A DNA stretch of 64,000 nt from Kofleriaceae bacterium (GCA_043759355.1 JAYVLQ010000093.1:20989-84988), one strand, 5' to 3'. Shown: positions 7,925-35,702, counted from the first letter of the stretch. The notes: generated by a model from the sequence alone, not told the origin. Program-made: numbers and translations.

Positions 7925-9170
7925 GCTTCGCGACCGGAAGCTCGAGCGGTGCCTCGTCGGTGATGCTCTCGGCGGCAGCGCCGGCGACCCGCGCGGTGCT
8001 CGCGATCACCACGACCCCGCAGATCACGAGCAATACCGTGAGTAGCAAGATGCCCTCGCGCGCCTCGCCATGGCGCAGCGCGTATTGCATCAGGCTCGAG
8101 CCGACCTGCAGGATGACGACGAGCCAGACCAGGCTCCACGCCTTCCCTTCGAGCTCGACCGCACCCGCGTTCGCCGCGTACTTCGCGATGCCGATCGCGA
8201 CCAGCACGAGCGTGATCGCAGCGACCAGGGGCAGCACGAATTCGAACGCATGCGTGCGCGCGTCAGCGCCATACCCGGACGCCAGCTTCGACAGCGTGAT
8301 GGCGCCACACCAGCCACTCCCCAACCCTGCAGCGATGAACAGCGCGCGGCTGACGCCCTCGATGTTCGAGCGCGCGATCGTGAAGGCACCGAAGGCGAAC
8401 CACATGAACGTGCCACCGCTGATCAGCGACGAGAGGGTGATCGCGGTCGAGATCGCGGATGGATCTCGCGCGCCGGCGATCATGAACGTCAACAAGATCA
8501 ACAGCACGGTCGCCATCAGCCGCCACCACATCGAGTGCTCGAGCATGCGGTAGCCGAACTTCGCGCGCCTCGGCTCCGGGATCACGAAGCCGGCCGGGAC
8601 GTCGCTCACCGCGACCATCGCGAGCGCGAGCAAGCCCAGCGTTCCGAGCAGGTAGAGCGCGAGCCCGACCTGCTGCAGCGTCGTGTGATGGTTGTCGTAG
8701 AGCCATCGCGACACCGGCGGCGGCGAATGCGCGATCAACCACACCGCGCACCCTGCGATCGCGATCACGGGCTTCTTCCACGCGATCCACGCGAAGCCAA
8801 CTCCGATCGCGGCCGCGCAGCCGAACCAGATCCACGACATCACCTGCAGGCCCCAGCTCGGCATCCAGCTCTCCTTGATCGTGAGGACGAGGTAGAGACA
8901 GCTCAGCGTCAACGACATCATCCACCCGGCCGTGATCAGCCGCGCTCCGAACCTGCGCCGAATCGGCACGATCTCGACCAGCTCGAGCGCACCGACGATC
9001 GCGGCGATCAGCGCGGCGAATTCGATGGACTCGCGAGCGCGCAAGATGTCGATGAAGGTCTCGGTCGATCCGAACGAGGGCTGGAACACGTTCCAGAACT
9101 CGACGAGCACGGTCATGATCGACGCGACGCGGAGCGCCAGGGGGACCGCGCGCCAGCTGTTGCGAAGCAT
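7917..9170 (-). CDS. Polytopic membrane protein, unknown function
   Basis: Trimmed to ATG 9168-9170 (MLRNSWRAVPLALRV...), which overlaps the stop of the upstream acyl-CoA dehydrogenase as ATGA. About 10 or more hydrophobic segments. Confidence 0.7.
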   Translation of the reverse strand: MLRNSWRAVPLALRVASIMTVLVEFWNVFQPSFGSTETFIDILRARESIEFAALIAAIVGALELVEIVPIRRRFGARLITAGWMMSLTLSCLYLVLTIKESWMPSWGLQVMSWIWFGCAAAIGVGFAWIAWKKPVIAIAGCAVWLIAHSPPPVSRWLYDNHHTTLQQVGLALYLLGTLGLLALAMVAVSDVPAGFVIPEPRRAKFGYRMLEHSMWWRLMATVLLILLTFMIAGARDPSAISTAITLSSLISGGTFMWFAFGAFTIARSNIEGVSRALFIAAGLGSGWCGAITLSKLASGYGADARTHAFEFVLPLVAAITLVLVAIGIAKYAANAGAVELEGKAWSLVWLVVILQVGSSLMQYALRHGEAREGILLLTVLLVICGVVVIASTARVAGAAAESITDEAPLELPVAKLI

Positions 9171-14296: not shown

Positions 14297-14979
14297 CCGC
14301 CTTCGTCCTCGGGGCAACCGGGTTTGTCGGGCGCGAAGTCGTGCGTCAGCTCACCGTACGCGCCACGCCAGTGGTCGCGCATATCCGTCCAGATTCGAAG
14401 AGCCTCGCCGAGTGGAAGCAGAAGCTCGAGGCGCTTGGCGCTGTCATCGACACGACCACGTGGGATCCGGCGGCCCTCGCGGCGGCGCTCGATCGTCACG
14501 CCGCAACCCAGCTCTACATCTTGATCGGCACCACGCGCGGCAAGGCGAAGGCCGATGCTGTCGACGGCGACATCTACGAGAAGGTCGACTACGGCCTGAC
14601 GAAGATCGCGATCGAGGCGGCGCAGCAATCGCGGAGCAAGCCGCGCCTGGTCTATCTCTCCGGGATTGGCGCGAGTGCGACCGCTCGGGGCGCGTACATG
14701 CGGGCGCGCGGGAAGGCCGAAGATGCGGTGCGGGGATCCGGGCTGCCATGGGTGATGGCGCAGCCCGCGATCATCACGGGCACGCGCGACGAGAGCCGCC
14801 TCGGCGAGCACGTCGGCGCCGTCGTCGGGGATGGCTTACTCGCGGTCGTCGGCCTGTTCTCGAAGTCGCTCCAGCAGAAGTACGCGTCGACCACGCCCGA
14901 TGTACTCGCCTCGGCGCTGATCCGGATCGCCGAAGCACCCGAGCACGATCGCGCGTTCGCCGGCGCGGACCTGCGCTAG
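14293..14979 (+). CDS. NAD(P)H-binding atypical SDR / epimerase-like protein
   Basis: ATGA overlap with the previous gene. MTAFVLGATGFVGREVVRQL Rossmann motif. Confidence 0.8.
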   Translation: MTAFVLGATGFVGREVVRQLTVRATPVVAHIRPDSKSLAEWKQKLEALGAVIDTTTWDPAALAAALDRHAATQLYILIGTTRGKAKADAVDGDIYEKVDYGLTKIAIEAAQQSRSKPRLVYLSGIGASATARGAYMRARGKAEDAVRGSGLPWVMAQPAIITGTRDESRLGEHVGAVVGDGLLAVVGLFSKSLQQKYASTTPDVLASALIRIAEAPEHDRAFAGADLR

Positions 14980-17900
14980 TCGAACGATTTCTGCGGCGCG
15001 GTCGCGACCACGGCGATGGTCGCCTGGCCATTGACGGTCTCGCAGTGCAGCTCGAGCTCGTCGAGGTGCGCCATCAGCTTCTCGCGCTCCTTACGATCTT
15101 GCATGTCGCCCATGATGCCGAACGCGCAGATCGTGATCTCGCCCTCCGGTACACCCGTGAATTCGGCGACGAGATCGCCCGGTCGAAACACCTTGGCGAG
15201 GTTCTTCGGAATGCTCTCACCGGCCGGATGCTTGCCAAACAAGATCGAGAGGCCCGGGTAGCTCTGCGAGTTGAACTGGCCGGCATTCGTGAAGTTGTAG
15301 CGCCCCGGCAGCATGAATAGCTGCACGCCCTCGAGCGGCACGCTCAGGGTGCTTCGCCCGATGACATCGACCTTGCGCACCGAGCCACCCGGATCGAGCA
15401 CGAGGTTCGTGACCGGATCGCTGCCGGCATTGACGATCGTCGACGAGAACAACTTCTCCAGGTCACGCTCGACCACGAGCGAGACTTCGATCTTGTTCTG
15501 ACTCACACCGTCGATACTGAACGCACCATCTGCGCCGACCGGCGCCATCTGCCCGAAGTCGACGCGGTGATTTCCCGGGGGACCAGCGCCGACCGCGGTG
15601 ATCGTGTGATCGCGTCCACCGAGCACCACCTTGCCGGAGATCAACCGAGTCGGCTCGAGCACGAGCTTCACGTGATCCGCGATGGTGCTCGCGCCGGACC
15701 GCCGATCGGTCAGCTGCGCGATGATCGCGCCATGCTCGGCGCAATCGAGAATGACGAAGTGCCCGTTCGCATCGCTGGTCGCGACCCGCAAGTTGCCATC
15801 GCCTTGGTGCCAGCGCACATTCGGCAGGTATCCGATCGAATCCATGATGAGCACCGACCCTGCAGCGACGGTCGCGCCGGCTACCGGCCTTCCCTTTGCG
15901 TCGACGACATCGCCCTCGATGCGAACACCCTTGGTCGTGCTCGGCTTCCAGAGCCGCACGAGATCCGCATGGCCGCCCGCGATGTCCTCGCTCCAGTAAC
16001 GAACGAACGCTCGATCCTTCTCGAGCTTGAGCACCAGCTTGCTGTCGCCTTCCTGGCCTTTCAATGCACGAGCGATCGGGAGCCACCTGGTCACGAGCGC
16101 GCTGACCGCCTTGTAATCCTCGACCAGCGAGCGGCTGAACCGCAGCTCGATCTGCTCGAGCACGACGTTGATCGTGGCGCGCGGCTGGTTGAGGTTTTCG
16201 AACGTCGCGATATTGTGGTCGGAGAGTGCGAGCGCTTCTTTCCAGTTGCTCGCCTGACTCGCGACGAGGCCTCGGATGAAATCGAGCCGCGCATTGAGCG
16301 CTGGCTCGGCCACGCGCTGGACCGCCACATCTGCGCGCTTGATCGCCGCGATCCCACGTGCGCCGATCATGGGGACCTCCAGCTGATAGCTGATCGCCGC
16401 GAGCAACAGGTCGGCGCGCAACCGATCGTCGTCGCATTGTTCGACCATCGCGATCGCGTCGCTCATCGCGGTGTGCCTGGCCGGGTAGTCGGTCCCCGAT
16501 TTCTCCACCGCGTACAGCGCCAAGGACTTCGCGCAGGGATCGATGTTCGGCTTGTTGGCCAGCGCCTGTGCCGAGGCGAGCGTCTTGTCGGTGTCGACCT
16601 GGGCGCCTCCTTCGTCGTACTTTCGCGAGAGCTCGTAGGCGGCCACGACATCGGGCGTCGGCTTCAACACGAGGCGCGGTGGCGACGGCACGAGGCACAC
16701 CGCCGGATCGACGAGCGCCTGGGCGACGTCTTCCTCGTCGACATTCTTCGACGGCCCGTAGACGCGGCGCACGAGATCGATGCGCTGCAACGCGCCATCG
16801 AGGCAGTGGAGCTGCTGTGGTCGAACGATCGGCTCGGCCGTGCACGCGCTCGCGCGTGCGACCGCCCAGTGATTGATCTGCGCGTTGAACAGCTCCGACA
16901 GCGCCGGCGGCATGTCCTTCGCGAATGCTTCGCTCCACACCTTGCCCGGGTCGATCGCGGGTGGATCGCAGCTGGGGCCACGATGATGCAGCGCGAAGAA
17001 CGCGATCACGATCGCCGCGATCGCCCCGCCCCCGGCCGCGAACGCCAGCCCCGCTTTGCGCTCGGAGCTGCGCAACGCCGCGAGCAACGCATCCATGGTG
17101 GGGAACCGGTTGGCGGGATCCGTGTCCAACCCGCGCACCAAGATCTTGCGCAGCCGATGCGGCAGCTTCGAGACATCGAGCTCGGCAGGACCCCTGCGTA
17201 CTTCCGCCTTGAGCTCCTCGATCGAATCACCTTTGAACGGGCGTGCGCCGGTCAGAGCTTCCCACAGCGCGACACAGAACCCGAACTGATCCGCGGCCGC
17301 GCCGACGATGCCGCCGGTCCATTGCTCCGGCGCCATATATGCCGGCGTGCCGAGCACCGAGCCCGTCGCGGTGATGCCGGAGAGCCCGCTCGGCTGGTTC
17401 GCATCGGGGCGCAGCGTCACGTCGAGTGCGACGGCTTGCGCATCCTCGACACCGCGCGCGAGTCCGAAATCGGTGACGACGATCTTGCCGTCCTTGCGGC
17501 GCAGCACGTTGTGCGGCTTGAAGTCGCGGTGGACGAGGCCTGCGGCGTGCGCGGCGGCGAGCCCGCGACCGGCGCGGACGAACGCTTCGACGATCTCGAA
17601 CACCGTGCGCGGCTTTGCCGCCAGCCATTCGGCAAGGGTCGAGCCGTCGATCAGCTCCATCGCGACATAGTCACGATCGCCGACGGTGCCGACCTCGTGC
17701 ACGACGACGACGTTCTCGTGGGTGAGGCGCGCCATCGCGCGCGCTTCGCGCAACAACCGCTGACGTGCATCGCCTCCGACATTGGTCGTGCGCAACACCT
17801 TCAATGCGACGCGACGTTCGAGATCCGGATCGAACGCCGCGTGCACCACGCCCATGCCGCCCTCGCCGAGCATACGCTCGAGGCGATAGCGACCGAGCGT

Positions 17901-18011
17901 GGCACCGAGCTCGGGTGCAGCCGATTTCGGCGAATTGGGAGCGGTGGCGGTGTGCGCCAGCTCTTCGTCGAAGGTCGCCATCGAAGGCGCATGATAGCAG
18001 TAACTTTTCAC
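14976..18011 (-). CDS. Ser/Thr protein kinase with TM segment and large C-terminal extracytoplasmic region
   Basis: [35 protein letters not shown] segment [12 protein letters not shown]. The start may be MATFDEE at 17981. Confidence 0.9.
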
Positions 18012-18863: not shown

Positions 18864-19967
18864 GTGCCGCTCGCGTTGCCTTTTCAACCGCCGGTCGAGC
18901 CGATGCTCGCAAAATTATGCTCGGAGATTCCCGAAGGCGAGCAGTGGATCTACGAGCCGAAATGGGATGGCTTCCGCGCGCTCGTGTTCAAGGCCGGGGA
19001 CGAGATCTACATCCAGAGCCGCGATCTCAAGCCGCTGGGTCGTTACTTCCCCGAGCTCGAGGTCCAGCTCCGCGCGAACTTACCCGACAAGTGCGTGCTC
19101 GATGGCGAGATCGTGATCGCGCACGAAGGCCAGCTCGATTTCGATGCGATGTTGCTGCGCATTCACCCCGCGGCGACGCGCGTAGCCATGCTCGCCGCCG
19201 AGAAGCCGAGCTCTTACATCGCGTGGGACATCCTCGCGCTCGGCGATGAAGATCTGCGAGCGTTGCCGCAACTCGAGCGGCGCGATCGCCTGGTCGCCGC
19301 ACTCGCGAACGCGAAGCCGCCGATCCATCTCACGCCCGCGACGCGTGACAAGGCCGTCGCGGCCGATTGGTTCCAGCGTTTCGAGGGTGCGGGCCTCGAC
19401 GGCGTGATGGCGAAGCCCGACTCGCTCGGCTATTCGCCTGGCAAGCGCGCGATGCTAAAGATCAAGCACCAGCGCACGGCCGAGTGCGTCGTTGCCGGCT
19501 TCCGCTGGTACAAGGGCGGCAAGGACACGCTCGTCGGTTCGCTGCTGCTCGGGCTCTACGACGACAAGGGCGTGTTGCATCACGTCGGCGTGTGCGCGGG
19601 TTTCAAGCAGACTGTGCGCGCGGAGCTCGCCGAGCTCTTGAAGCCGCTCCGCGATCGCGAGAACCATCCGTGGAAAGATTGGGCAAACTTTCAGAGCGGA
19701 GGCGACGACGAAGCTGCACCGCAACGCAAACCCGGTGCGACGTCGCGCTGGAATCGCGGCAAGGATCTCTCGTGGGAGCCGCTGCGCCTCGAGCTCGTCT
19801 GCGAGGTCACCTACGACCACCTCCAGGGCACGCGGTTCCGGCACGGCACGCATTTCCAACGGTGGCGCGCGGACAAAGCGCCGAGTGACTGCCGCTACGG
19901 CCAGCTCGAAGAGGTCGCAGCGATCGAGATCGCCCAGATCTTCGGTCAGGTATCATCAAGGTCGTGA
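18864..19967 (+). CDS. ATP-dependent DNA ligase (stand-alone LigC/LigD-ligase type)
   Basis: VEPMLAKL..., adenylation motif I EPKWDGFR, later motifs GLDGVMAK and MLKIK. No Ku gene in the window. Confidence 0.85.
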   Translation: MPLALPFQPPVEPMLAKLCSEIPEGEQWIYEPKWDGFRALVFKAGDEIYIQSRDLKPLGRYFPELEVQLRANLPDKCVLDGEIVIAHEGQLDFDAMLLRIHPAATRVAMLAAEKPSSYIAWDILALGDEDLRALPQLERRDRLVAALANAKPPIHLTPATRDKAVAADWFQRFEGAGLDGVMAKPDSLGYSPGKRAMLKIKHQRTAECVVAGFRWYKGGKDTLVGSLLLGLYDDKGVLHHVGVCAGFKQTVRAELAELLKPLRDRENHPWKDWANFQSGGDDEAAPQRKPGATSRWNRGKDLSWEPLRLELVCEVTYDHLQGTRFRHGTHFQRWRADKAPSDCRYGQLEEVAAIEIAQIFGQVSSRS

Positions 19968-23086: not shown

Positions 23087-23830
23087 ATGAGATCGAGCTC
23101 AACTCTCGTGTTAGTTTCCGCACAGATGCGGACGACGATCGCCATGTTCACCATCGTGGGTTTAGGCCTCTGTGCGTGCTCCAAGAGCGAGAACGCGGGA
23201 ATCGAGGAGGCGCGCAAGCAGGCCGCTGCCGAGAACAAGGCCAAGATGAGTGACCCGAACTTGCGGGTGAAGATGATCGATCCGCCGGTGCCGGGCCAGC
23301 AAAAGCTGACCTGCGCGCAGCTCGTCGATGCCGACAAGTTCACCCAGCTCCTCGGCGAGACCGCGCCCGTCGTCGTCCATCAGATGAAGGACGATGGCGA
23401 AGCCGCGGCCTCGTGCTCGATCATCCGCGGTGGCAAGCCCCCGAGCGAAGCGGAGCAGACCGCGCTCAAGAAGAAGAACGGCCGGCTCGGCGTGATGCCC
23501 GGCGACGAGATCTGCAACATCGCGACGTACTGCTGGACGATCGAAGCGGCCGACCGGTTCGCGAAGAAGTGCGTCGAGCAGAAGGCGAACATGGACACCA
23601 CCCTCGGCTTTCCGGCGTGCCTCCGCGTGATGCCCGAGGGCGAATCCGACAAGAACAACTACAAGTTCTTCGACGAAGATACCAAGTGCATCATCGGCGT
23701 GCGCGGCGGCCCCAGCATGGTCGACAACGACATCATCGGAAAGTGCGCGAAGAGCGCGCACGATCTCATCGGGCCCGACCAGATCAAGCCGGGCGCGGCA
23801 GCGCCCGCAGGCTCGGGTAGCGGCGCGTGA
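23087..23830 (+). CDS. Lipoprotein, unknown function
   Basis: The likely true start is the Met at 23126 (MRTTIAMFTIVGLGLCAC). Cys-containing, Lys-rich mature part with ordinary composition. Confidence 0.65.
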   Translation: MRSSSTLVLVSAQMRTTIAMFTIVGLGLCACSKSENAGIEEARKQAAAENKAKMSDPNLRVKMIDPPVPGQQKLTCAQLVDADKFTQLLGETAPVVVHQMKDDGEAAASCSIIRGGKPPSEAEQTALKKKNGRLGVMPGDEICNIATYCWTIEAADRFAKKCVEQKANMDTTLGFPACLRVMPEGESDKNNYKFFDEDTKCIIGVRGGPSMVDNDIIGKCAKSAHDLIGPDQIKPGAAAPAGSGSGA

Positions 23831-24910: not shown

Positions 24911-25471
24911 ATGTGGTCGCTGCGCCGCCCTCGAGACGCCGAACTGGCCGCGATCCTCGCGCGCGTTGCCGGGCTCTCGCTCACGTATCCCGAGGTCGGA
25001 ATGAGCCGCACCGGTGGCGCGCCCGCGTACCACTGCGAGGACCATCGAAGCGAGCTCGCGATCGATTTCGCGACCGCGGCCGAGCGACTCGCCTCGTTCG
25101 CGACCCACGAGCTGCCGTACATGTTCGTATATCCGCGCGATGCGCGGGTGATGCTGCGCCGTGATGTCGTCGTGTGCGCGAAGGTCGGGCCGGTGTGGTC
25201 GATCAATCCGTGCCGGATCGTCCACGTCGAAGCCACGCCCGATCGGTTCGAGTACGCGTACGGCACCCTGCCCGGCCACGCCGAATCCGGCGAGGAGTAC
25301 TTCGCGGTTTCGCGCAGCGCCGACGGTCGGGTGGTCGGCGAGACCACCGCGTACGCGCGCATGGCCGATTGGATCGCGAAGCTCGGCGCGCCGATCGCGC
25401 GCCGCGTTCAGCGGAAGGTCAAGATCGACTACCTGCGCGCACTCGGGATGGTCACGACTTCGAGATCGTGA
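24911..25471 (+). CDS. DUF1990 domain protein
   Basis: FEYAYGTLPGHAESGEEYFAV and the overall size match my recollection of DUF1990. Confidence 0.7.
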   Translation: MWSLRRPRDAELAAILARVAGLSLTYPEVGMSRTGGAPAYHCEDHRSELAIDFATAAERLASFATHELPYMFVYPRDARVMLRRDVVVCAKVGPVWSINPCRIVHVEATPDRFEYAYGTLPGHAESGEEYFAVSRSADGRVVGETTAYARMADWIAKLGAPIARRVQRKVKIDYLRALGMVTTSRS

Positions 25472-25811
25472 AGCCGGTGACGCAGCGGTACGGTTTGCCC
25501 TGGTAATCGGTGCTCACGTATTCGAGCTTGACCTGATACTCCGAGCGGAACGTGGAGAACATCAACTGGATGCTCGTGTCCGACAGCTCGCGCCCCTTGC
25601 ACTGCAAGCCGCCCCAGCGATAGTTGACCGAGGCCTTGTCGAGCTCGAGCCAGACCGCGCCGTGAAACAACTTGTAGCTCGAGTCGCCAGGCTCGAGCAC
25701 CATCATCTGCGCGACCGACGTCACCGGTGTGGTGTCCGCGAACGCGGGCGGCGAGAGTGCACCGAGCACGGCAACAACCATGGCAATAACGACGAGGGGA
25801 GCGGGGCGCAT
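25452..25811 (-). CDS. Small secreted protein, unknown function
   Basis: Trimmed to ATG 25809-25811 (MRPAPLVVIAMVVAVLGALSPPAFA signal). It starts 10 nt downstream of the stop of paralog 1. The upstream part of ORF 25452..26231 is Arg/Ser-rich nonsense. Confidence 0.6.
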   Translation of the reverse strand: MRPAPLVVIAMVVAVLGALSPPAFADTTPVTSVAQMMVLEPGDSSYKLFHGAVWLELDKASVNYRWGGLQCKGRELSDTSIQLMFSTFRSEYQVKLEYVSTDYQGKPYRCVTGFTISKS

Positions 25812-25821
25812 CGTCGCTAGC

Positions 25822-27276
25822 TTAGCAGCGTCTACGTCGGCGTCGCGTGAGACCCACGACGAGAACGCCGAGCAGCAGTGCTGACCACGGCTGACCGCGC
25901 CCCTCGACCGAGCAGCAACCACCCACCGAGACCTCGACGCAGTATCCCTTGCCGCCACCGGTATCGGCGCACGTGAAGTTCCCAGGACAGCTCGAGGGCT
26001 CGTCGACCTCGCACTCCACCGAGCACTTCTTGCCCTGATCGGTGTCGATGCACTCCCAGCTCTGGCAGTACTGCGAGTACGGGCACGTTGCCCCGAGCGC
26101 GCCGGGGGGATCCGGATACGCGCACTTGCCATCGGTGCACCTCTGATCGGCCAGACATCCCGACGCATCGGTGCACGCAGCGACGCGCGTGACCGTGGTG
26201 GTCGTCGAATCGGTCGACCCGCCGAGGTCATCGGTCGCGCGCACCATTATGTCGATCACGCTGTTCGGGACGGCCGTCGGAATCTTGAGCGTGTAGTCCG
26301 ATTTGGGCTGCCCGGTCGCGTTGAACGCTGCGCCCAAGGCGACAGCCCACCGGCTGCCATTCAAGAACAGCTCGAGCTTCGCGACCCCGCGTTGCGCCGC
26401 GGCGGTCGCGTGCACGACGACCTCGCCGGCAGGGATCGCCGTGCCCGCAACACCCTCGAGCGTCACGGTCGGCGGTGTCGTGATCGGGGTGCCCGCACCG
26501 AACACGAGCAACAGCGCCGCGTGCGAGTTCTGCGTGCCGCCGCAGCGACACGCGCGCACCGCGTCTTCACCGCAGGCCGCGCGCGAGTTGCGAAAGAACT
26601 TCTGGCCGCCGCAATCATTGCGATACGTCATCGGATCGCGACACGTCGAGGTGCCGTCGGTGAACTGATACTCGTGATCGAGCCCGAAAGCGTGCGCGCT
26701 CTCCTGCGCCGCGGTCCAGCAGATATCGAGGATGCGCGGCGTGCCGAGCCCGGGATGATGATTAGCGAACGTGAACGAGATGACGTTGTCCTGCGCGGTA
26801 CAGTTCGCGGCGATCGGCGCGACGCCGAGGTTGTCGACCGGGCGACCGATATCGCCCGGTTGACCCGCGATGATTGCTTCGGTGTACGTGGCATTTTGCG
26901 GCTCGGTGTCCGTCACCGTGATCGCGTACGGCGAGTAAACCTCCTGCACGCACTTCACGACCGCGGCCCAATCGGCATCCGCGGCGCCGCCGGCGACGCC
27001 AACATCGTTCGCGAACTCCGCCATCGTGTAGTCGCCCACGGAGGGGATCGACGAGTGTTGCGTGCGCGCGTCGTTGCTCGCGCCACCGTGCACGATGCAC
27101 CCACCGACGCACCGGTTGAGGTACAGGTACGGCGAGATCTGCGGCACGACCGGACGCTGGAGCGGTGTAAACGCCTCGGCCGGCGTATCGACGACCGCAC
27201 GCACGCGTGGCGGAGCATCCGCGCTCGCGACACCGGCCATCAAAGCAACGCCGGTGACGAGGACTGCGCGGAGCAT
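25822..27276 (-). CDS. MYXO-CTERM-anchored secreted protein, metzincin-like domain with QExxHxxGLxH motif (paralog 1)
   Basis: Signal peptide. CWTAAQESAHAFGLDHEYQFTDGTSTCRDPMTY (26671-26706 covers the motif). Ig-like middle, Cys-rich module. Tail GGCCSVEGRGQPWSALLLGVLVVGLTRRRRRRC. Confidence 0.85.
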   Translation of the reverse strand: MLRAVLVTGVALMAGVASADAPPRVRAVVDTPAEAFTPLQRPVVPQISPYLYLNRCVGGCIVHGGASNDARTQHSSIPSVGDYTMAEFANDVGVAGGAADADWAAVVKCVQEVYSPYAITVTDTEPQNATYTEAIIAGQPGDIGRPVDNLGVAPIAANCTAQDNVISFTFANHHPGLGTPRILDICWTAAQESAHAFGLDHEYQFTDGTSTCRDPMTYRNDCGGQKFFRNSRAACGEDAVRACRCGGTQNSHAALLLVFGAGTPITTPPTVTLEGVAGTAIPAGEVVVHATAAAQRGVAKLELFLNGSRWAVALGAAFNATGQPKSDYTLKIPTAVPNSVIDIMVRATDDLGGSTDSTTTTVTRVAACTDASGCLADQRCTDGKCAYPDPPGALGATCPYSQYCQSWECIDTDQGKKCSVECEVDEPSSCPGNFTCADTGGGKGYCVEVSVGGCCSVEGRGQPWSALLLGVLVVGLTRRRRRRC

Positions 27277-27300
27277 CCGGCCTAGTCTACATGACGCGGG

Positions 27301-28764
27301 TCAGCGGTGACGGCGACGTAACACGAAGCCGAGCGCGACCATGCCGAGCCCGATCGGCGCGTACGGCACGTGGTTGCCATCGTGACCAACGTTACAGCAG
27401 CCACCACCCGTGCTCTGTGGGAGGCACACGCCACCGGTCTCGCTCGTCGCGATACAGTCGAACGTCGCGGGGCACCCATCCGTCGAGCCGACGACGCACG
27501 ATTGCGTGCAGTACTGGCCGATATCGGACTGCTGGCACAGGCCGGTCGTGCAGTACTCGTTGTACGTGCACGTAGCGCCGAGCAGCCCGACCGGCGCGTC
27601 CCAGAAACACTTACCGGCTTCACACTTCTGACCGGTCAAGCAGGTCGAGGCGCTCGCGCACGCGGCACCCTTATGCACCGTCGTGACCGAGCTCGCCGTC
27701 ACGTTGTCGAGATCGTCGTACGCCTTGAGCTGTACGTCGATCACGCCATCGGGCACGTTCGCCGGCGCCGTGACCGTGTAGTTCGCCGGGTTCGGTTGAC
27801 CGTTGAGCCCGAACGCCGCACCCGCCGTGGTCGCCCACAGGTGGTCGTTGAGATAAAGATCGATCTTCGCGACACCGCGGCGCGAGCCAGCGCTCGCGAG
27901 CACCGTGAAACCGGACTGCACGGCAGCGCCCGTCGCCGGCGAGCTCAGCACCAGCGACGGCGCTGGAATCGACGAGGTGCCGGCACCGAGCGTCTTGGTG
28001 AGCCGAACGACCGAGTTCTGCATGCCACCGCAAGTACAGAGCCGCGTCGCGTACTCGCCGCAGGCCGCCGGCTTGTTGCGGAAGAACTTTTGACCACCGC
28101 AGTCCATGCGATACGTCATCGGATCGTTGCAGGCCGACTGACCGTCGGTGAACTGGTACTCGTGTTCGAGCCCGAAGTTGTGAGCGGTCTCCTGCGCGAT
28201 CGTCCAGCACTGATCGAGCACGCGAGCTTGACCGGTACCACCTTCGTGGTTCGAGAACGAGAACGAGATCACGTTGTCGAGCGGGGTGCAGGTCCCGAGA
28301 CCAACGCCGAGGATGTCGTTACCGAGGCCGATGTCAGTGGGTTGGCCCGCGGCGATCGCCATCGTGTAGCCGACACCGTTGATCGGGAGCTGATCGCTCA
28401 CCCTCACCGCGAACGGCGAGTAGACCTCCTGCACGCACGTGACAAGCGCGGTCCACGCCGCATCGGCAGGGGCGCCGGTCTGACCCTGTTCGTTCTCGAA
28501 TTCGCCGACGACACCGTTGTTCGCGATCGAAGAGGTCAACGAGCGCGCATCGTCCGAGCCGTGCATCAACGCGCAACCGCCCTTGCAGCGGTTCATGTAG
28601 ATGTACTGCGACGTCTGCGCCGCGACCGGGCGCGCCGGCCCCGTGTACGGGATCGAGATCCGGCGGCCTTGGCCGTGAGGCAGCCGACCCGGACGTTCGT
28701 CCGCGCGGGCGATCGAGCCGGCAGCGGCGATCGCGACGAGCGAAATCAATAGCGCTTTACCCAT
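27301..28764 (-). CDS. MYXO-CTERM-anchored secreted protein, metzincin-like domain with QExxHxxGLxH motif (paralog 2)
   Basis: CWTIAQETAHNFGLEHEYQFTDGQSACNDPMTY (28159-28194). Tail GGGCCNVGHDGNHVPYAPIGLGMVALGFVLRRRHR. Confidence 0.85.
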   Translation of the reverse strand: MGKALLISLVAIAAAGSIARADERPGRLPHGQGRRISIPYTGPARPVAAQTSQYIYMNRCKGGCALMHGSDDARSLTSSIANNGVVGEFENEQGQTGAPADAAWTALVTCVQEVYSPFAVRVSDQLPINGVGYTMAIAAGQPTDIGLGNDILGVGLGTCTPLDNVISFSFSNHEGGTGQARVLDQCWTIAQETAHNFGLEHEYQFTDGQSACNDPMTYRMDCGGQKFFRNKPAACGEYATRLCTCGGMQNSVVRLTKTLGAGTSSIPAPSLVLSSPATGAAVQSGFTVLASAGSRRGVAKIDLYLNDHLWATTAGAAFGLNGQPNPANYTVTAPANVPDGVIDVQLKAYDDLDNVTASSVTTVHKGAACASASTCLTGQKCEAGKCFWDAPVGLLGATCTYNEYCTTGLCQQSDIGQYCTQSCVVGSTDGCPATFDCIATSETGGVCLPQSTGGGCCNVGHDGNHVPYAPIGLGMVALGFVLRRRHR

Positions 28765-28846
28765 GGACCGGAGGGAGTACTACAGGCGCCCCAACCCGTC
28801 AGTAGGTTTTGTCACGCCTCTGTTTTTCGAGAGTCCGCGAAGCTTG

Positions 28847-30283
28847 CTACGCGCAGCGACGGCGACGTCGACGCAGCACCAAGCCGAGCGCCACGAGGCC
28901 CAGCGCGATCGGTGCCCACGGAGCACGGTTGCCGTGCGCGACGCTGCAGCAACCGCTGCTGCCGGCGCTCTGCGGCAAGCACACGCCACCGGTTTCGCTG
29001 GTCGCGATGCAATCGAAGCTGGACGGACAGCCATCGGTCGAGCCGACGACACACGCTTGCGAGCAGTACTGGCCGACGTCCGAGTCCTGACAGATGCCCG
29101 TCGTGCAGAACTCGTTGTACGTGCAGGCACCACCGAGGAGGCCGGCCGGCGGATCCCAGAAACACTTGCCGGCTTCGCACTTCTGACCGGTCAAGCAGGT
29201 CGAGGCGGTCGCGCACGCGGCGCCCTTGGTCACCGTCGAGGTGGTCGAGTCGGTCTCGATCCCGAGGTCGTCGTACGCCTTGACCATCACGTCGATGACA
29301 CCGTCGGGAACGTTCGCCGGAGCGAGCATCGAGTAGGTCGTCATCAGTTGACCCGAAAGCGAGAACTTCGCGCCGGGCGTCGTCGCCCAGAGATGGTTGT
29401 TGAGATAGAGGTCGAGGTGCTTCACGCCGCGGCGAGAGAACGCGGTCGGGGCCACGACGAAGCCCTTCGCGACCGTCGCGCCGGTGGCCGGTGAATCGAG
29501 CGTCACGGTCGGGGCCGGAATCAGCGACGTACCAGGGCCGAACACCGAGGTCAGCTTGAGGTGCGAGTTGACGACCGACGCGCACGCGCAGGGCTTCGCA
29601 GTGAAGTCACCGCAGTTCGCGGTGCGGTTGCGGAAGAACTTCTGGCCGCCGCAGTTCGACAGGTACGTCATCGGATCGCTGCACGCAGACTCGCCATCGG
29701 TGAACGAAATCTCGTGATCGGGAAGACCGTATGCGTGGGCGATTTCCTGCGAGATAACCCAGCAAATGCCCCACACGCGGTTGCCGTTGTCTTCCTGCGC
29801 GAAGTCATTGACCGCGGTCTCGGCGAACGCGAACGCGATCTGGTTCGTCATCGGCGAACAGTCCGGCGAGCCCGGCCCGACCCCACCGACGCCGGTCGGC
29901 AGGCCGATATCTTGCGGGCGACCTGCGACGATCGCTTCGCTGTACTCGGTGTTCGGACGGACGTCCGTGACGGCCACGGCGAACGGCGAGTAGACCTCGC
30001 GGACGCATTGAACGACCTGAGCCCATTCGCCCGGCTGCCACGCGTACTCGCTGAACACGGATTGGGCCTGCGCCAGCGACGTGGTGTCGGTACGCGCGTC
30101 GGTCGAGCCCGGCTTGATCGTGCAGCCACCCGCGCAGTTGTTGAGAAAGATCGTCTCGCCGGTCAGCACGGTGCTCGGCGGATGCTGCGGCGGTTGGATG
30201 ACGGTGCGAATCTCCGGTGTCGCGGACGCGACGGCGACAGACGTGACGATCAGCGCGGCAACGGCGAAACGGACATTCAACAT
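28847..30283 (-). CDS. MYXO-CTERM-anchored secreted protein, metzincin-like domain with QExxHxxGLPxH motif (paralog 3)
   Basis: CWVISQEIAHAYGLPDHEISFTDGESACSDPMTY (29711-29749). Tail SGCCSVAHGNRAPWAPIALGLVALGLVLRRRRRRCA. Confidence 0.85.
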   Translation of the reverse strand: MLNVRFAVAALIVTSVAVASATPEIRTVIQPPQHPPSTVLTGETIFLNNCAGGCTIKPGSTDARTDTTSLAQAQSVFSEYAWQPGEWAQVVQCVREVYSPFAVAVTDVRPNTEYSEAIVAGRPQDIGLPTGVGGVGPGSPDCSPMTNQIAFAFAETAVNDFAQEDNGNRVWGICWVISQEIAHAYGLPDHEISFTDGESACSDPMTYLSNCGGQKFFRNRTANCGDFTAKPCACASVVNSHLKLTSVFGPGTSLIPAPTVTLDSPATGATVAKGFVVAPTAFSRRGVKHLDLYLNNHLWATTPGAKFSLSGQLMTTYSMLAPANVPDGVIDVMVKAYDDLGIETDSTTSTVTKGAACATASTCLTGQKCEAGKCFWDPPAGLLGGACTYNEFCTTGICQDSDVGQYCSQACVVGSTDGCPSSFDCIATSETGGVCLPQSAGSSGCCSVAHGNRAPWAPIALGLVALGLVLRRRRRRCA

Positions 30284-30330: not shown

Positions 30331-32130
30331 TCACGGTGGCTCGTGGTGGCCGGTGACACGTGCTGACGTGTTGATGATGTCCGGGGCCGCCCACACCACA
30401 TCGACTTCGAGGTCGAGCGCTTCGGTCCCACTCGGATAGGCGACGCGAGAGACCGCGGACTCGATACAGAGCTTGAGGCTCGGCGAGCGTTCGGTGTCCT
30501 CGCCCTTGGCCTCGGCATCCGAGGTCGCACCATCGGGTGCGACACGCAGCGTGACCACCACATCGGAATCATTCGCACGCACCAGCGCGCTGCCGTGGCC
30601 GATCGACTCCGCGGTCAGCGGCCGGGAGGCCCACTCGTCGAAGCAGCCCTCGAGGTCGCGTTGTGCGGTCGCGACCGACGTGACGACCCGGCTGCTCTGC
30701 GACACCACGTGAGGCACGGCCTTCGCTATGCGCAGGTTGGTGACTTGCTCGAACAGCGAGTTGATCTCGGCCTCTTTCGCGACCAGCAGCTCCTTGTCGT
30801 GCTCGAGCGACTTGATGTCGTCTTCGTGCGCGAGGTCGCGTTCGATCAGGCGCTTGCGCAGCTGCTTCTTCTCGAGCTCGAGCTGGTTGATCCGGTCGAC
30901 TAGCACGCGAACCGTTTCGGTATCAGGCGGCTCGGGCAGGCGCGTGCCATGACCGCGCGACTCGAGCACCGCGGCGGTTGCACCACCGAGGACGACGAGC
31001 GCGACCGCGGCGAATGCGAGCGTACGACCACGCGCGTGTTGCACCGGAGGCGTGAGCTCGCCGATCAGCGCGGCCAGCGTGGGGAATCGATCGGTGCGCT
31101 CCTTCGAGAGCCCGCGCATCACGGCCTTCGCGACCGACGCCGGAATCTTCGAAGCATCGGGCGGCGGCCGTGCGGGCTCGCCGTGCTCGAGCATCGCGAC
31201 CGAGGTCGAATCGCGCAGCGGGTGGTGCCCCCAGAGCGCCTCGTAGAGCGCGACGCAGAAGCTGAACTGGTCGCTGCGCGCGTCGATGTTCGGGCCGAGT
31301 AGCTGCTCCGGCGCCATGTAGCGCGGCGTGCCGAGAACGGTGCCCGTCGCGGTCAGATCGACCTCGAGCGGCGAACCATTCGCGCGCGGCATGTCCGACG
31401 GCGAGGTCGGGCCGCGATTCGAATCGTCGATGCCGAACAGCGAGCGCGCGAGCCCGAAGTCCGTCACTCGGACGCGACCATCGCCACCGACGAGCACGTT
31501 GTCGGGTTTGAAGTCGCGGTGCAAAAGGCCCACCGAATGGGCGGCCATCAACCCGCGCGCCGCTTGATGAAAGATCTCGAGGGTCTCGCGCCACGTGCGC
31601 GGCCACTTCTTGAGCCACGAGGTCAGCGTGTCGCCCTCGACGAACTCCATCGCGATGTAGACGTCTTCGTTGTCTCCAGTCGTCCCCACGTCGTAGACGC
31701 CGACGACGTTCGGATGGTTGAGCTGAGCGATCGCTTGGGCCTCGCGCTTCAACCGTACGCGCGCCTCCTTCGCATTGACGCCGAGGTTCGCGCGCAGAAC
31801 CTTCAGCGCGATCTTGCGATCGAGCTGGGGATCGTACGCGGCGAACACGTGGCCCATGCCGCCCGAGCCGAGCGTCGAGAGCACGAGATAGCGACCGACG
31901 CGATCACCGATCGCGAACACCGGGAGCTTGCCGACCTGCGACTCGCTCACCTTTTCGTGCGGGTGAGTCTGGACATTACTGTCCATGTCGTCGGCACCCG
32001 CGAGCGCGGCGACCAGCGTGCGGCAGTCCCGGCACGACGCGAGGTGGGCTTCGACCTTGGTGGACGCGCTCGCGGTCATCCCCCCCGAAACGAACTCGCT
32101 GACGGTGTTGTCGTCGAGGTGATCGATCAT
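30331..32130 (-). CDS. Membrane Ser/Thr protein kinase with N-terminal zf-HC2-like motif
   Basis: Start chosen at [10 protein letters not shown] (alternative Met at 32208). [59 protein letters not shown], coiled coil, C-terminal extracytoplasmic domain. Confidence 0.85.
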
Positions 32131-32357
32131 CGAGGCATACAAGGCCGGGGCCGGCCGTTGGTCAGGGTAGCGCAGCTCGGCAGACGAACTCTTTAATTGC
32201 AAACACATGCCTGGTTGCCGAACCCTGGTATAAGGCCGGCTCACGAGAGACACCGCGGACTGCGCTGGGTTTCGCTTGCATCCGTTTGACGGGTGGGGTA
32301 GCAAACGCAGGATTTTTTAGGCTTTTACGGGTTTACGACACCTCCAGGAGACGCATC

Positions 32358-34496
32358 GTGCTGACCGACCTTTCCAAAGTTCGCAACATCGGGATCTCGG
32401 CCCACATCGACAGCGGTAAGACCACGCTGACCGAGCGCATCCTCTACTACACCAACCGGATCCACGCGATTCACGAGGTCAAGGGTAAAGACGGCGTCGG
32501 CGCCAAGATGGATTCGATGGAGCTCGAGCGCGAGCGCGGCATCACGATCCAGTCGGCCGCGACGTTCTGCCAGTGGCCGCCGGCCGCGACGGCCAAGACC
32601 GTCATGGCGGTCCCGGGCTCGCCGATCAAGGCGACCCACTGGATCAACATCATCGACACCCCGGGCCACGTCGACTTCACGATCGAGGTCGAGCGTTCGC
32701 TCCGCGTGCTCGACGGCGCCGTCATGGTGCTGTGCGGCGTCGCTGGCGTGCAGTCGCAGTCGTACACCGTCGATCGCCAGATGCGCCGCTACAAAGTCCC
32801 GCGCATCGCCTTCATCAACAAGCTCGATCGCACCGGTGCGAACCCGTACAAGGTGAAGGATCAGCTGCGCGAGAAGCTCAAGCTCAACCCGATCCTCATC
32901 CAGATGCCGATCGGTCTCGAGGACAAGCTCGAAGGCATCATCGACCTCGTCGAGATGCAGGCGTTCATGTTCTACGGGGACAACGGCGAGACGATCGAGC
33001 GAGTCGCGATCCCGGCCGACCTCAAGGAGAAGGCTGAAGAGCTGCGCGCCGAGATGCTCGATGGGCTCTCGCTCGTGAGCGATTCGCTGACCGAAGCGAT
33101 GCTCGAGGACAAGGTCACGCCGGAGCTCATCCGCGCGTCGCTCCGTGAAGTCACGATCGCGCTCAAGGCGACGCCCGTCATGATGGGCTCGGCGCTCGGC
33201 AACAAGGCCGTCCAGCTGCTCCTCGACGGCGTTTGCAACTACCTCCCCGAGCCGCGCGACGTCGAGAACATCGCGCTCGATCTCGACAAGGAAGAGGCGC
33301 CGGTCATCGTCCAGTCGGACGCGACCAAGCCGCTCGTCATGCTCGCGTTCAAGCTCGAGGATGGCCGCTACGGTCAGCTCACGTACGTCCGCATCTACCA
33401 GGGTGCGATTCGCAAGGACGAGTTCATCGTGAACTCGCGTAACGGAAAGAAGGTCAAGGTCGGCCGTCTCGTCCGCATGCACTCCGATGATCGCGAAGAG
33501 ATCACTGACGCGGGCGCCGGCGACATCTGCGCGGTGTTCGGCGTCGACTGCAACTCGGGCGACACGTTCACCGACGGCACCATCAACTACGCGATGACCT
33601 CGATGTTCGTGCCCTCGGCCGTCATCTCGGTCGCCGTGAAGCCGAAGGATGCCGGCGCCGAGATCAACATGTCCAAGGCGCTCCAGCGCTTCACGAAGGA
33701 AGATCCGACCTTCCGCGTGCACGTCGACCCGGAGTCCAACGAGACGATCATCGCGGGCATGGGCGAGCTCCACCTCGAGGTCTACATCGAGCGCATGAAG
33801 CGCGAGTACAAGGCCGAGGTCGTCACCTCGCCGCCGCAGGTCGCGTACCGCGAGACCATCACGAAGAAGACCGAGTACAACTACACCCACAAGAAGCAGA
33901 CGGGTGGCTCGGGTCAATACGGTAAGGTCGGCGGCCACTGCGAGCCATTCGATGGCGACTTCGAGTTCGCCGACGAGATCAAGGGTGGCTCGATTCCACG
34001 CGAGTTCATCTCGTCCGTCGAGAAGGGCTTCAAGTCGATGATCATGAAGTCGCCGCGTCTCGGCGTGCCGGTCGTCGGTCTGCGCGTCGTCCTCAACGAC
34101 GGTGGCGCCCACGCGGTCGACTCGAGCGATATCGCGTTCCAGGAAGCGGCTCGCGGTGCGTTCCGTGACTTCTTCCCGCGTGCCTCGCCGAAGATCCTCG
34201 AGCCGATCATGAAGCTCTCGATCGAGGGGCCGGCCGAGTTCTCGGGCAACATCCTCGGCCTCATCATGCAGCGTCGTGGCATCGTCCTCGGATCGACCGA
34301 AGAAGATGGCAACGCGCGCGTCGATGCCGAGGTGCCGCTCGCCGAAATGTTTGGCTTCTCGACGCCGCTCCGAAGCTCGACGCAGGGCAAGGCCGAGTTC
34401 TCGATGGAGTTCGCGAAGTATTCCGAGACCCCGGCGAACATCACCGAGGAGCTGCTCAAGAAGGCCGCTGCTGCGAAGGAAGCTGCTCGCAAGTAA
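32358..34496 (+). CDS. fusA: Elongation factor G family GTPase (paralog type not resolved)
   Basis: GTG 32358 is preceded by [38 protein letters not shown]. All five EF-G domains are readable. Confidence 0.9.
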
Positions 34497-35702
34497 CTAC
34501 AGCAAGCAGCCGATCGCGATGATCCCCATCGCGAGGGCAAGTGCGACCACGACCGCGCGCCAGCTCGTCGAACTGTAGTTCGACGAGCTAGTCGCGGCCG
34601 TGACGCTTTCGGCCAAGGCGTTCGGTTTCGGTGGACCATTCGAGATCGGCGAGGTCCCCGCTGCGAGCCGCGGATGCGCATCGATCGCGAGCTGCGAGGG
34701 CCGGATCGGCGCGATGCCCGGGATCGTCGAATTCAAGCTGTTCGATCCGACCCACGCCAGCGGCATGTGTAGCGGCGGCGTCATGAGGGTCGGTGCGTCT
34801 TCATCGAGGTGCGCCATCGCGGCCGACAGCTCGGTCGCGTATCGATAGCGGCGCTGTGGATCCGCATCGAGGCACCGGAGAATGATCTGCGACAGGTTCG
34901 GCGGCACGTTCGAGATCGTGGGCGGCGGACCCGCGAGCACGGCGGCGAGCTGCGCGGCCGGACCGTTGACGTCGCCGTACGGGCGCTCGCCAACAATCAT
35001 CTCGTACATCACGACGCCGAGCGTGAAGATGTCGCTCTGCGCTGTCGCCATGCCGGTCATCTGTTCGGGCGCCATGTAATCGCCGGTGCCGATGATCTGG
35101 CCGATATGCGTGAGCGCGGCGTTGTCGAGCACGCTGGACTCGACGACCTTCGCGATGCCGAAGTCGAGGACCTTGACGTGATCGCGATCGGCGCCGCGAC
35201 GTTCGAGATGAATGTTCGCCGGTTTGAGATCGCGATGGACGATGCCGAGCGCATGCGCTTCGGCGAGCGAGCTGCATACGCCGCGCGCGATATGGACGAC
35301 GCGCTGCCACGTCAACACTCCCTGCGCTTTGTAGTGCTCGTACAAGCTCTCGCCCGAGAGCAGCTCCATCACGAGGAACGGGGTGCCATCGTCAGCCTCG
35401 CCCGCATCGACGGCGGAGACCGTATGCGGATCAGCCAGCGATGCGAGCGCTTCGATCTCGCGTCTGAACCGCGCCGCGATCGACGTATCGCGCGCGTGCT
35501 TCGCGTGCACGAGCTTCACCGCGACGTCTGATCCGGTCGCGAGATCGGTCGCGATGTACACCGCTCCGAAGCCGCCGGTGGCGAGCAAGTGCACGAGGCG
35601 ATAGCGCTCGCCGAGGATCTGGCCCAGCCGTGGATCGAGAGCCTCGATCAAGGTGTTGTCTGGGTCGGTCTCGGTCAGCATCGGCCCTCCTAATACGGAC
35701 AA
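34497..35702 (-). CDS. Tail-anchored Ser/Thr protein kinase
   Basis: ATGGFGAVY, VAVKLV, HRDLKPANI, DFGIA, APE. C-terminal TM AVVVALALAMGIIAIGCLL. Its stop abuts the EF-G stop (TAACTA). Confidence 0.85.
   Translation of the reverse strand: MSVLGGPMLTETDPDNTLIEALDPRLGQILGERYRLVHLLATGGFGAVYIATDLATGSDVAVKLVHAKHARDTSIAARFRREIEALASLADPHTVSAVDAGEADDGTPFLVMELLSGESLYEHYKAQGVLTWQRVVHIARGVCSSLAEAHALGIVHRDLKPANIHLERRGADRDHVKVLDFGIAKVVESSVLDNAALTHIGQIIGTGDYMAPEQMTGMATAQSDIFTLGVVMYEMIVGERPYGDVNGPAAQLAAVLAGPPPTISNVPPNLSQIILRCLDADPQRRYRYATELSAAMAHLDEDAPTLMTPPLHMPLAWVGSNSLNSTIPGIAPIRPSQLAIDAHPRLAAGTSPISNGPPKPNALAESVTAATSSSNYSSTSWRAVVVALALAMGIIAIGCLL

Follow-up and report, generated by a model that had tools for sequence, protein, structure and literature searches.

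The window analysed here is a stretch of 64,000 nucleotides (nt) of DNA from Kofleriaceae bacterium (GCA_043759355.1 JAYVLQ010000093.1:20989-84988). All coordinates given below refer to this whole 64-kb window, and the open reading frames (ORFs) of the locus were taken from the ORF list. Three co-directional paralogous genes on its minus strand, named here copies A, B and C, encode modular proteins with a predicted metzincin fold in which the first zinc-binding His is replaced by Gln. Metzincins are defined by their three-histidine zinc site and, to our knowledge, the sole natural Gln-first exception described is one algal enzyme family, reported to prefer copper. The reading favoured here, with a probability of roughly 55%, is that these proteins are catalytically competent hydrolases with an altered His2-Gln(-Tyr) metal centre, as suggested by the conservation of the site, the predicted structure and the analogy with the algal enzymes. 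Between altered metal ligation and a pseudoprotease, which were the two candidates of an earlier note on this DNA, the evidence leans to altered metal ligation.

Copy A (478 amino acids, aa; 28847-30283), copy B (487 aa; 27301-28764) and copy C (484 aa; 25822-27276) are all encoded, like every feature of theirs described below, on the minus strand. Spacers of 82 nt (A to B) and 24 nt (B to C) separate them, and their pairwise identity is 46-59%. The ORF list agrees with the earlier note on the three co-directional genes and their spacers, as well as on a small secreted gene 10 nt downstream and a kinase gene 47 nt upstream, but the lengths of 479-488 aa given there have to be corrected to 478-487 aa. 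Each paralogue consists of an N-terminal hydrophobic signal sequence, a domain of about 215 aa with the pattern QExxHxxGL(x)xH...DPMTY, an Ig-like domain, a Cys-rich module and a C-terminal tail. The metzincin domains span 29525-30160 (copy A), 27973-28614 (copy B) and 26485-27138 (copy C). Their metal-site motif reads QEIAHAYGLPDH in copy A (29714-29749), QETAHNFGLEH in copy B (28162-28194) and QESAHAFGLDH in copy C (26674-26706), and it is followed in every copy by F.DG.S.C.DPMTY, with the Met-turn DPMTY at 29663-29677, 28111-28125 and 26623-26637, respectively. The residue at the first-ligand position is Gln179 in copy A (codon at 29747-29749), Gln191 in copy B (28192-28194) and Gln191 in copy C (26704-26706); the codon is CAG in 3/3 copies, one transversion away from the His codon CAC. 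Copy A has one residue inserted ahead of the third His (GLPDH). This Pro insertion had been noticed before and is real, but it had been placed in the third copy, whereas it belongs to the first one in transcription order.

The position of the Gln was established within the family and against a characterised metzincin. Canonical HE[AV]GHxxGLxH is found in 26 in-family homologues, where it aligns without gaps to exactly the columns of the Gln motif, and 22 domains of this canonical type are among the 150 best relatives of the profile search. Besides, HHalign comparison of the family profile with the catalytic domain of MMP-3 (E=1.3e-4) matched the Gln to the first His of the HEIGHSLGLFH motif and the family Met (DPMTY in copy C) to the MMP-3 Met-turn. 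Both comparisons bear out the claim that Gln stands for the first zinc His in all three copies. With respect to the extended metzincin motif HExxHxxGxxH/D, the Glu, the second His, the Gly and the third His are kept and the first His is Gln; the Met-turn is present as DPMTY, its Met being located, by sequence position, 15 residues past the third His. In a shorter subfamily that lacks the F.DG.S insertion (GLEHEYLCEDPMTY) the Met is found 8 residues past the third His, which is an MMP-like spacing. The N-terminal domain has no family model in Pfam or NCBIfam. Its weak Pfam matches are to Reprolysin_2/3/4/5 and Peptidase_M10, cover about 45 residues around the motif and are all under the cut-off; the best reprolysin-like one is that of copy B to Reprolysin_4 (19.6-21.9 bits, where the cut-off is 22). 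When copy B and the N-domain alignment were searched directly against the PDB, by sequence and by profile, the matches did not rise above chance level.

The AlphaFold2 model of the copy C N-domain, obtained with a 41-sequence alignment, has a predicted local distance difference test (pLDDT) score of 97.1 and a predicted template modelling (pTM) score of 0.93. In this model a long active-site helix stops at the second His and is followed by a Gly turn and a C-terminal helix. A Foldseek search of the PDB with it gave 61 matches at E<=1e-3, and the best 50 of the 61 were all metzincins, including MMP-1/2/3/13, ADAM8 and serralysins, with probabilities of 0.99-1.00 and identities of 9-16%; template modelling scores were 0.4-0.55 where the aligned region covers most of the target. 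A first model from a 21-sequence alignment had residues 153-194 (the Met-turn region) disordered and weak Foldseek scores; this shallower model matched the same structural families. According to these models, the N-terminal domain is a metzincin fold, distant from every characterised family. The canonical in-family columns, the HHalign result and the fold together indicate that both registration and fold are those of a metzincin; a motif registered elsewhere and a non-metzincin fold, the two outcomes that the earlier note had named as contrary to its claim, were looked for and neither was found.

Conservation of the site was analysed in an alignment sample of 296 domains: 267 Gln-type, 26 His-type and three single sequences with Glu, Phe or Met at the first-ligand position. 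This is the survey of His versus Gln that had been proposed, and both types occupy identical columns. The 267 Gln-type domains have diverged to a mean pairwise identity of about 47%. Among them, the Gln is present in 100% (267/267), the catalytic Glu in 98.5%, the second His in 99%, the Gly in 95%, the third His in 99%, the Met in 97% and the Tyr two residues past the Met in 98.5%. The most conserved positions of the domain are the metal-site residues together with ten Cys. The ratio of nonsynonymous to synonymous substitution rates (dN/dS), computed against the closest genomes (dS 0.15-0.36), is 0.10-0.11 for copy A (against loci L001 and L002), 0.12-0.18 for copy B and 0.13-0.20 for copy C; the neighbouring kinase has 0.11-0.14, so the three copies are indistinguishable from it. 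The codon of the Gln is a single nucleotide away from one for His, yet it has been retained. The proposal that a substitution conserved across diverged paralogues argues for selection is in agreement with this invariance and with these ratios. Conservation of 97-99% at the Glu, the two remaining His, the Met and the Tyr, together with dN/dS of 0.1-0.2, favours a working site over a dead pseudoprotease.

The main alternative is that the paralogues are surface pseudoproteases which have lost tight metal binding and act as non-catalytic binding or adhesion modules, for instance as a substrate trap or as a receptor feeding the kinase, with the residual active-site residues kept for ligand binding or fold stability. 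The loss of the first metal ligand in every window copy fits this, and the neighbourhood of the genes, with a sensor kinase on one side and the small secreted protein on the other, could suggest signalling rather than degradation. On the other hand, 267 diverged sequences retain the Glu, the two His, the Met and the Tyr at 97-99% each, whereas the known pseudoenzymes among metzincins have gathered several lesions. The history of the residue also speaks against it. In a neighbour-joining tree the His-type sequences fall in about seven clades and ten state changes are counted, three of them singletons to Glu, Phe or Met; the sequences thus indicate that the His and Gln states have been interchanged repeatedly while the rest of the site remained intact. 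Since the sequences were sampled around a Gln-type query, this tree does not allow the direction of these changes to be inferred. A compensating ligand separating Gln-type from His-type members was sought in the alignment and none was found, no ligand being lost or gained elsewhere; the Gln/His state covaries only with helix positions +2 ([ST] versus [AV]) and +3 (Ala versus Gly). Finally, a natural QEXXH metzincin, VMP3 of Volvox carteri, is reported to be enzymatically active. Taking both sides into account, pseudoproteases are considered possible but not probable.

Some members of the family do look inactive. In four Gln-type sequences the Glu is also changed to Gln (QQxxH), which agrees with the pseudoprotease alternative, and two of the three singletons carry further lesions (EETGELLGLEH in P0085 and FEIGYFTGLK in P0091). 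These QQxxH sequences and the Glu, Phe and Met singletons are likely, from their motifs, to be true pseudoenzymes within the family.

Several considerations weigh against a working Gln-ligated site. Zinc is bound less strongly by a carboxamide than by an imidazole, and pseudoenzymes that work as binding modules can keep most active-site residues. Strict metzincin spacing is broken by the extra residue ahead of the third His, which is present in 25/289 domains, all Gln-type (copy A and 24 others), in the forms GLPDH, GLPNH, GMADH, GIPNH, GLAYH and others; the His is invariant in these forms and the preceding residue is not. This altered G-x-x-H spacing is also what non-catalytic modules could show. 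Copper-handling genes were sought near the array and none was found, nor do zinc-handling genes lie there. Lastly, one His-type paralogue with canonical HExxH stands among Gln-type ones in five loci, L030 (11608-12285), L036 (11539-12222), L041 (11533-12216), L053 (3793-4467) and L065 (6911-7564), in each case in the coordinates of that locus. It lies between two Gln-type genes in the first three and is the last gene of the array in the other two, giving the patterns Q-H-Q, Q-H or Q-Q-H, which also fit enzyme/pseudoenzyme pairing. Nevertheless, most arrays and all single-copy loci have no His-type partner; as the one gene of a single-copy locus is of the Gln type, this type does not require a His-type gene in its cluster.

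As a further alternative, the proteins could be active metallopeptidases whose metal is not bound by the Gln. The coordination sphere would then be completed by the Tyr, by water or by a residue that comes from another protein in trans; the invariant His of the small secreted protein is one candidate, and that protein could in this case be an activator, a metallochaperone or a cognate inhibitor. The Tyr two residues past the Met is indeed conserved at 98.5-100%, but it is equally conserved in the His-type members and therefore is not a specific compensation. The small protein (119 aa; 25452-25811, minus strand) begins 10 nt past the TAA stop of copy C and has a signal peptide and a mature part of about 94 aa with two invariant Cys and the invariant stretches LFHGA and NYRWGGLQCKGR. 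It adjoins the array in 55/74 loci of the genome scan described below, is about 70% identical across loci and, with dN/dS of 0.014-0.05, is far more conserved than the proteases, all of which would suit a partner in the site. Its family comprises at least 859 database clusters, all "hypothetical" or unnamed and without a Pfam domain. However, although its gene usually lies a few nt past the last or core copy on the same strand, it is on the opposite strand (convergent) in five loci and was not detected at L053. Profile and PDB searches revealed no resemblance to known protease inhibitors in sequence or structure; the PDB profile search gave spurious P450 matches only, and no NCBIfam family was found. 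The strict invariance of Gln, rather than of any small polar residue, also argues for a direct role of its side chain. A Gln outside the coordination sphere is accordingly judged unlikely. The 3' end of the small gene overlaps a convergent DUF1990 gene (24911-25471, plus strand) by 20 nt.

In the favoured reading, that of a Gln-ligated metal centre, the signal peptide would export each protein and the MYXO-CTERM signal would lead to cleavage by a myxosortase at an invariant Cys and to tethering at the cell surface. MYXO-CTERM sequences have been described as carrying an invariant Cys and being processed by a myxosortase of the CPBP family, the gene of which is not located beside its substrates (Haft 2023). 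By analogy with this system, the paralogues are most likely anchored at the surface. The tail layout (GCC, hydrophobic segment, RRRR) is present in all of them, and the MYXO-CTERM assignment made earlier holds for copies A (28859-28957; 24.6 bits) and C (25828-25923; 23.1 bits), which pass the TIGR03901 model (cut-off 20 bits); copy B (27304-27408) reaches 12 bits and shows the layout alone, as GCC...hydrophobic...RRRHR. The Ig-like middle described in the earlier note is likewise above the Pfam cut-off for Big_7 in copies A (29354-29512) and B (27766-27960) and under it in copy C (26296-26466). The Cys-rich module, with about 10 Cys, is found in the three copies and has no match in Pfam or NCBIfam.

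The catalytic domain keeps what would be the general-base Glu, the second and third His, the Gly turn, the Met-turn and the tyrosine of the Met-x-Tyr pair, within the consensus Q-E-[ST]-A-H-x-x-G-L-D-H...D-P-M-T-Y, in which the putative first ligand is an obligatory Gln. The metal would be held by the two His and the carboxamide oxygen of the Gln, possibly with the Tyr, and the centre may catalyse peptide hydrolysis with altered metal affinity or preference, copper being one possibility, as in VMP3. It could also be asked whether the scaffold has been recruited to other chemistry, such as that of a non-peptidase hydrolase or a redox copper site. The ligand set has changed, the QEXXH precedent is reported to favour copper, and no characterised relative constrains the function; even so, the general-base Glu and the Met-turn architecture of peptide hydrolysis are kept and VMP3 is, by the same account, still a protease, which makes such a change of chemistry very improbable. 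A broader scenario, in which a large bacterial clade of cell-surface metzincins switched to a His2-Gln site independently of the Volvox enzymes for extracellular proteolysis with copper or another non-zinc metal, His/Gln toggling within the operons diversified metal use, and the small protein served as regulator or in metal delivery, is conceivable but rather doubtful.

Regarding the distribution of the family, an exhaustive profile search of 1.84 billion representatives gave 1,821 relatives at E<=1e-3, and a scan of GTDB species genomes gave 198 encoding stretches, from which 74 loci were kept. These loci are mostly from metagenome-assembled genomes of Kofleriaceae, Haliangiales or "Myxococcales", others being labelled Deltaproteobacteria or Proteobacteria, and soil and freshwater Kofleriaceae account for nearly all sampled members. 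In public databases they are named "hypothetical protein", "MYXO-CTERM domain-containing protein", "Ig-like domain-containing protein" or "TIGR03382 family". The proteins most likely constitute a metzincin-fold family specific to Kofleriaceae/Haliangiales and without public annotation.

The genes form co-directional arrays of 1-4 copies across the 74 loci, and among the array domains with a residue at the first-ligand column, Gln is found in 151/156 and His in 5/156. Orthologues of copy A with GLPDH or GLPNH are present in L001, L002, L004, L005, L006 and L012, and copy C represents the "core" paralogue type, which is the sole gene in single-copy loci. The three genes had been described as a tandem triplication. 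The array itself is confirmed, but a recent local event was rejected, given that the window paralogues are only 46-59% identical and that orthologues of each one can be told apart in other genomes, from which it follows that the array is ancient. The closest relative (L001, 94% identity) has a fourth member (8400-9113 of that locus) between its copy A and copy B orthologues, with the motif QETAHSFGLDH, so that copy number varies even between near-identical genomes.

The order of genes around the array is: a divergent EF-G paralogue, the kinase, the array, the 119-aa protein, a 247-aa protein on the opposite strand and a YihY/BrkB membrane protein, transcription running from the kinase through copies A, B and C to the small secreted protein. 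The kinase is found directly upstream of the array in 65/74 loci and EF-G in 61/74. Kinase, array and small protein form a conserved module across Kofleriaceae, an almost uncultured myxobacterial family. The gene of the membrane Ser/Thr protein kinase (30331-32304, minus strand) ends 47 nt upstream of copy A. The protein combines a zf-HC2 anti-sigma-like finger at the N-terminus with a Pkinase domain (E=8.7e-38), a transmembrane segment and a coiled coil; its C-terminal region is extracytoplasmic, and a weak AgmX/PglI-type domain is present at the C-terminus. Its listed start, TTG at 32304, overlaps the start of the divergent EF-G paralogue (32286-34496, plus strand); the true start is probably Met59 (about 32130), since most orthologues align only from residue 56-60. 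The 247-aa protein (23087-23830, plus strand) has an N-terminal hydrophobic segment and no Pfam match, and adjoins the cluster in 56/74 loci. Two more Ser/Thr kinase genes and an ATP-dependent DNA ligase gene (14976-18011 and 34497-35702, minus strand; 18864-19967, plus strand) are located within 15 kb, as is usual in myxobacterial genomes rich in kinases. Between 24800 and 32600, simple scans for promoters and terminators gave no match, such scans being uninformative for Kofleriaceae bacterium.

When compared with canonical metzincins, namely MMPs (M10A), serralysins (M10B), adamalysins/ADAMs (M12B) and astacins (M12A), the family has in common the fold, the active-site helix, the Gly turn, the third His, the Met-turn and the C-terminal helix. 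It differs from them in the change of the first His to Gln, in ten conserved Cys that are specific to the family and in the lack of a recognisable prodomain or cysteine switch. The Met-x-Tyr spacing is that of the zinc-binding Tyr in astacins and serralysins. An M43/pappalysin-like affinity had also been proposed, and the two groups do coincide in the metzincin clan, the GLxH motif, the Cys-rich surroundings and a Tyr past the Met-turn. This affinity is not supported: the window proteins gave no match to Peptidase_M43 (PF05572), their N-domains even at E<=10, and no M43 structure is among the best 50 of the 61 Foldseek matches, the weak matches being those to Reprolysin_2-5 and M10. The sole Peptidase_M43 match (E=0.036) was that of one His-type relative.

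Close canonical counterparts are the His-type relatives themselves (for instance P0043, P0056 and P0103, and the middle genes of L030, L036 and L041). They have the same domain at 44-57% identity and share the full Ig-like, Cys-rich and MYXO-CTERM architecture, sometimes within the same array, with H-E-[AV]-G-H instead of Q-E-[ST]-A-H; they account for 26/296 sampled domains and none is present in the window. His-type and Gln-type paralogues side by side, some of them in one operon, offer a natural matched series for relating metal selectivity and activity to a first-shell ligand. Besides, proteins now labelled "hypothetical" or "MYXO-CTERM domain-containing" should carry a metzincin-like annotation.

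VMP3 of Volvox carteri was the only QEXXH precedent found in the literature searched, and no bacterial case was encountered in it. Its QEXXHXXGXXH motif is described as naturally functional and as favouring Cu(II) (Heitzer & Hallmann 2002, J Biol Chem 277:28280, as cited in bioRxiv 10.1101/2020.06.30.165720). As far as this secondary account goes, the Kofleriaceae proteins resemble VMP3 in being extracellular and modular and in the altered motif, which copies B and C match exactly and copy A with one inserted residue. VMP3 is also described as experimentally active with a preference for copper. On the other hand, it belongs to a eukaryotic green alga, is of the gametolysin type and carries hydroxyproline-rich modules in place of the Ig-like, Cys-rich and MYXO-CTERM ones. 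No Peptidase_M11 match was obtained for the window proteins or their relatives in Pfam scans, so that homology to VMP3 is detectable at the clan level only; as VMP3 is from another metzincin family, the change from His to Gln arose independently in the two lineages. A metzincin with Gln for His is not a new category, being already known from one algal family. The Kofleriaceae proteins add to the Volvox precedent a whole bacterial family in which the Gln-first substitution is fixed under purifying selection.

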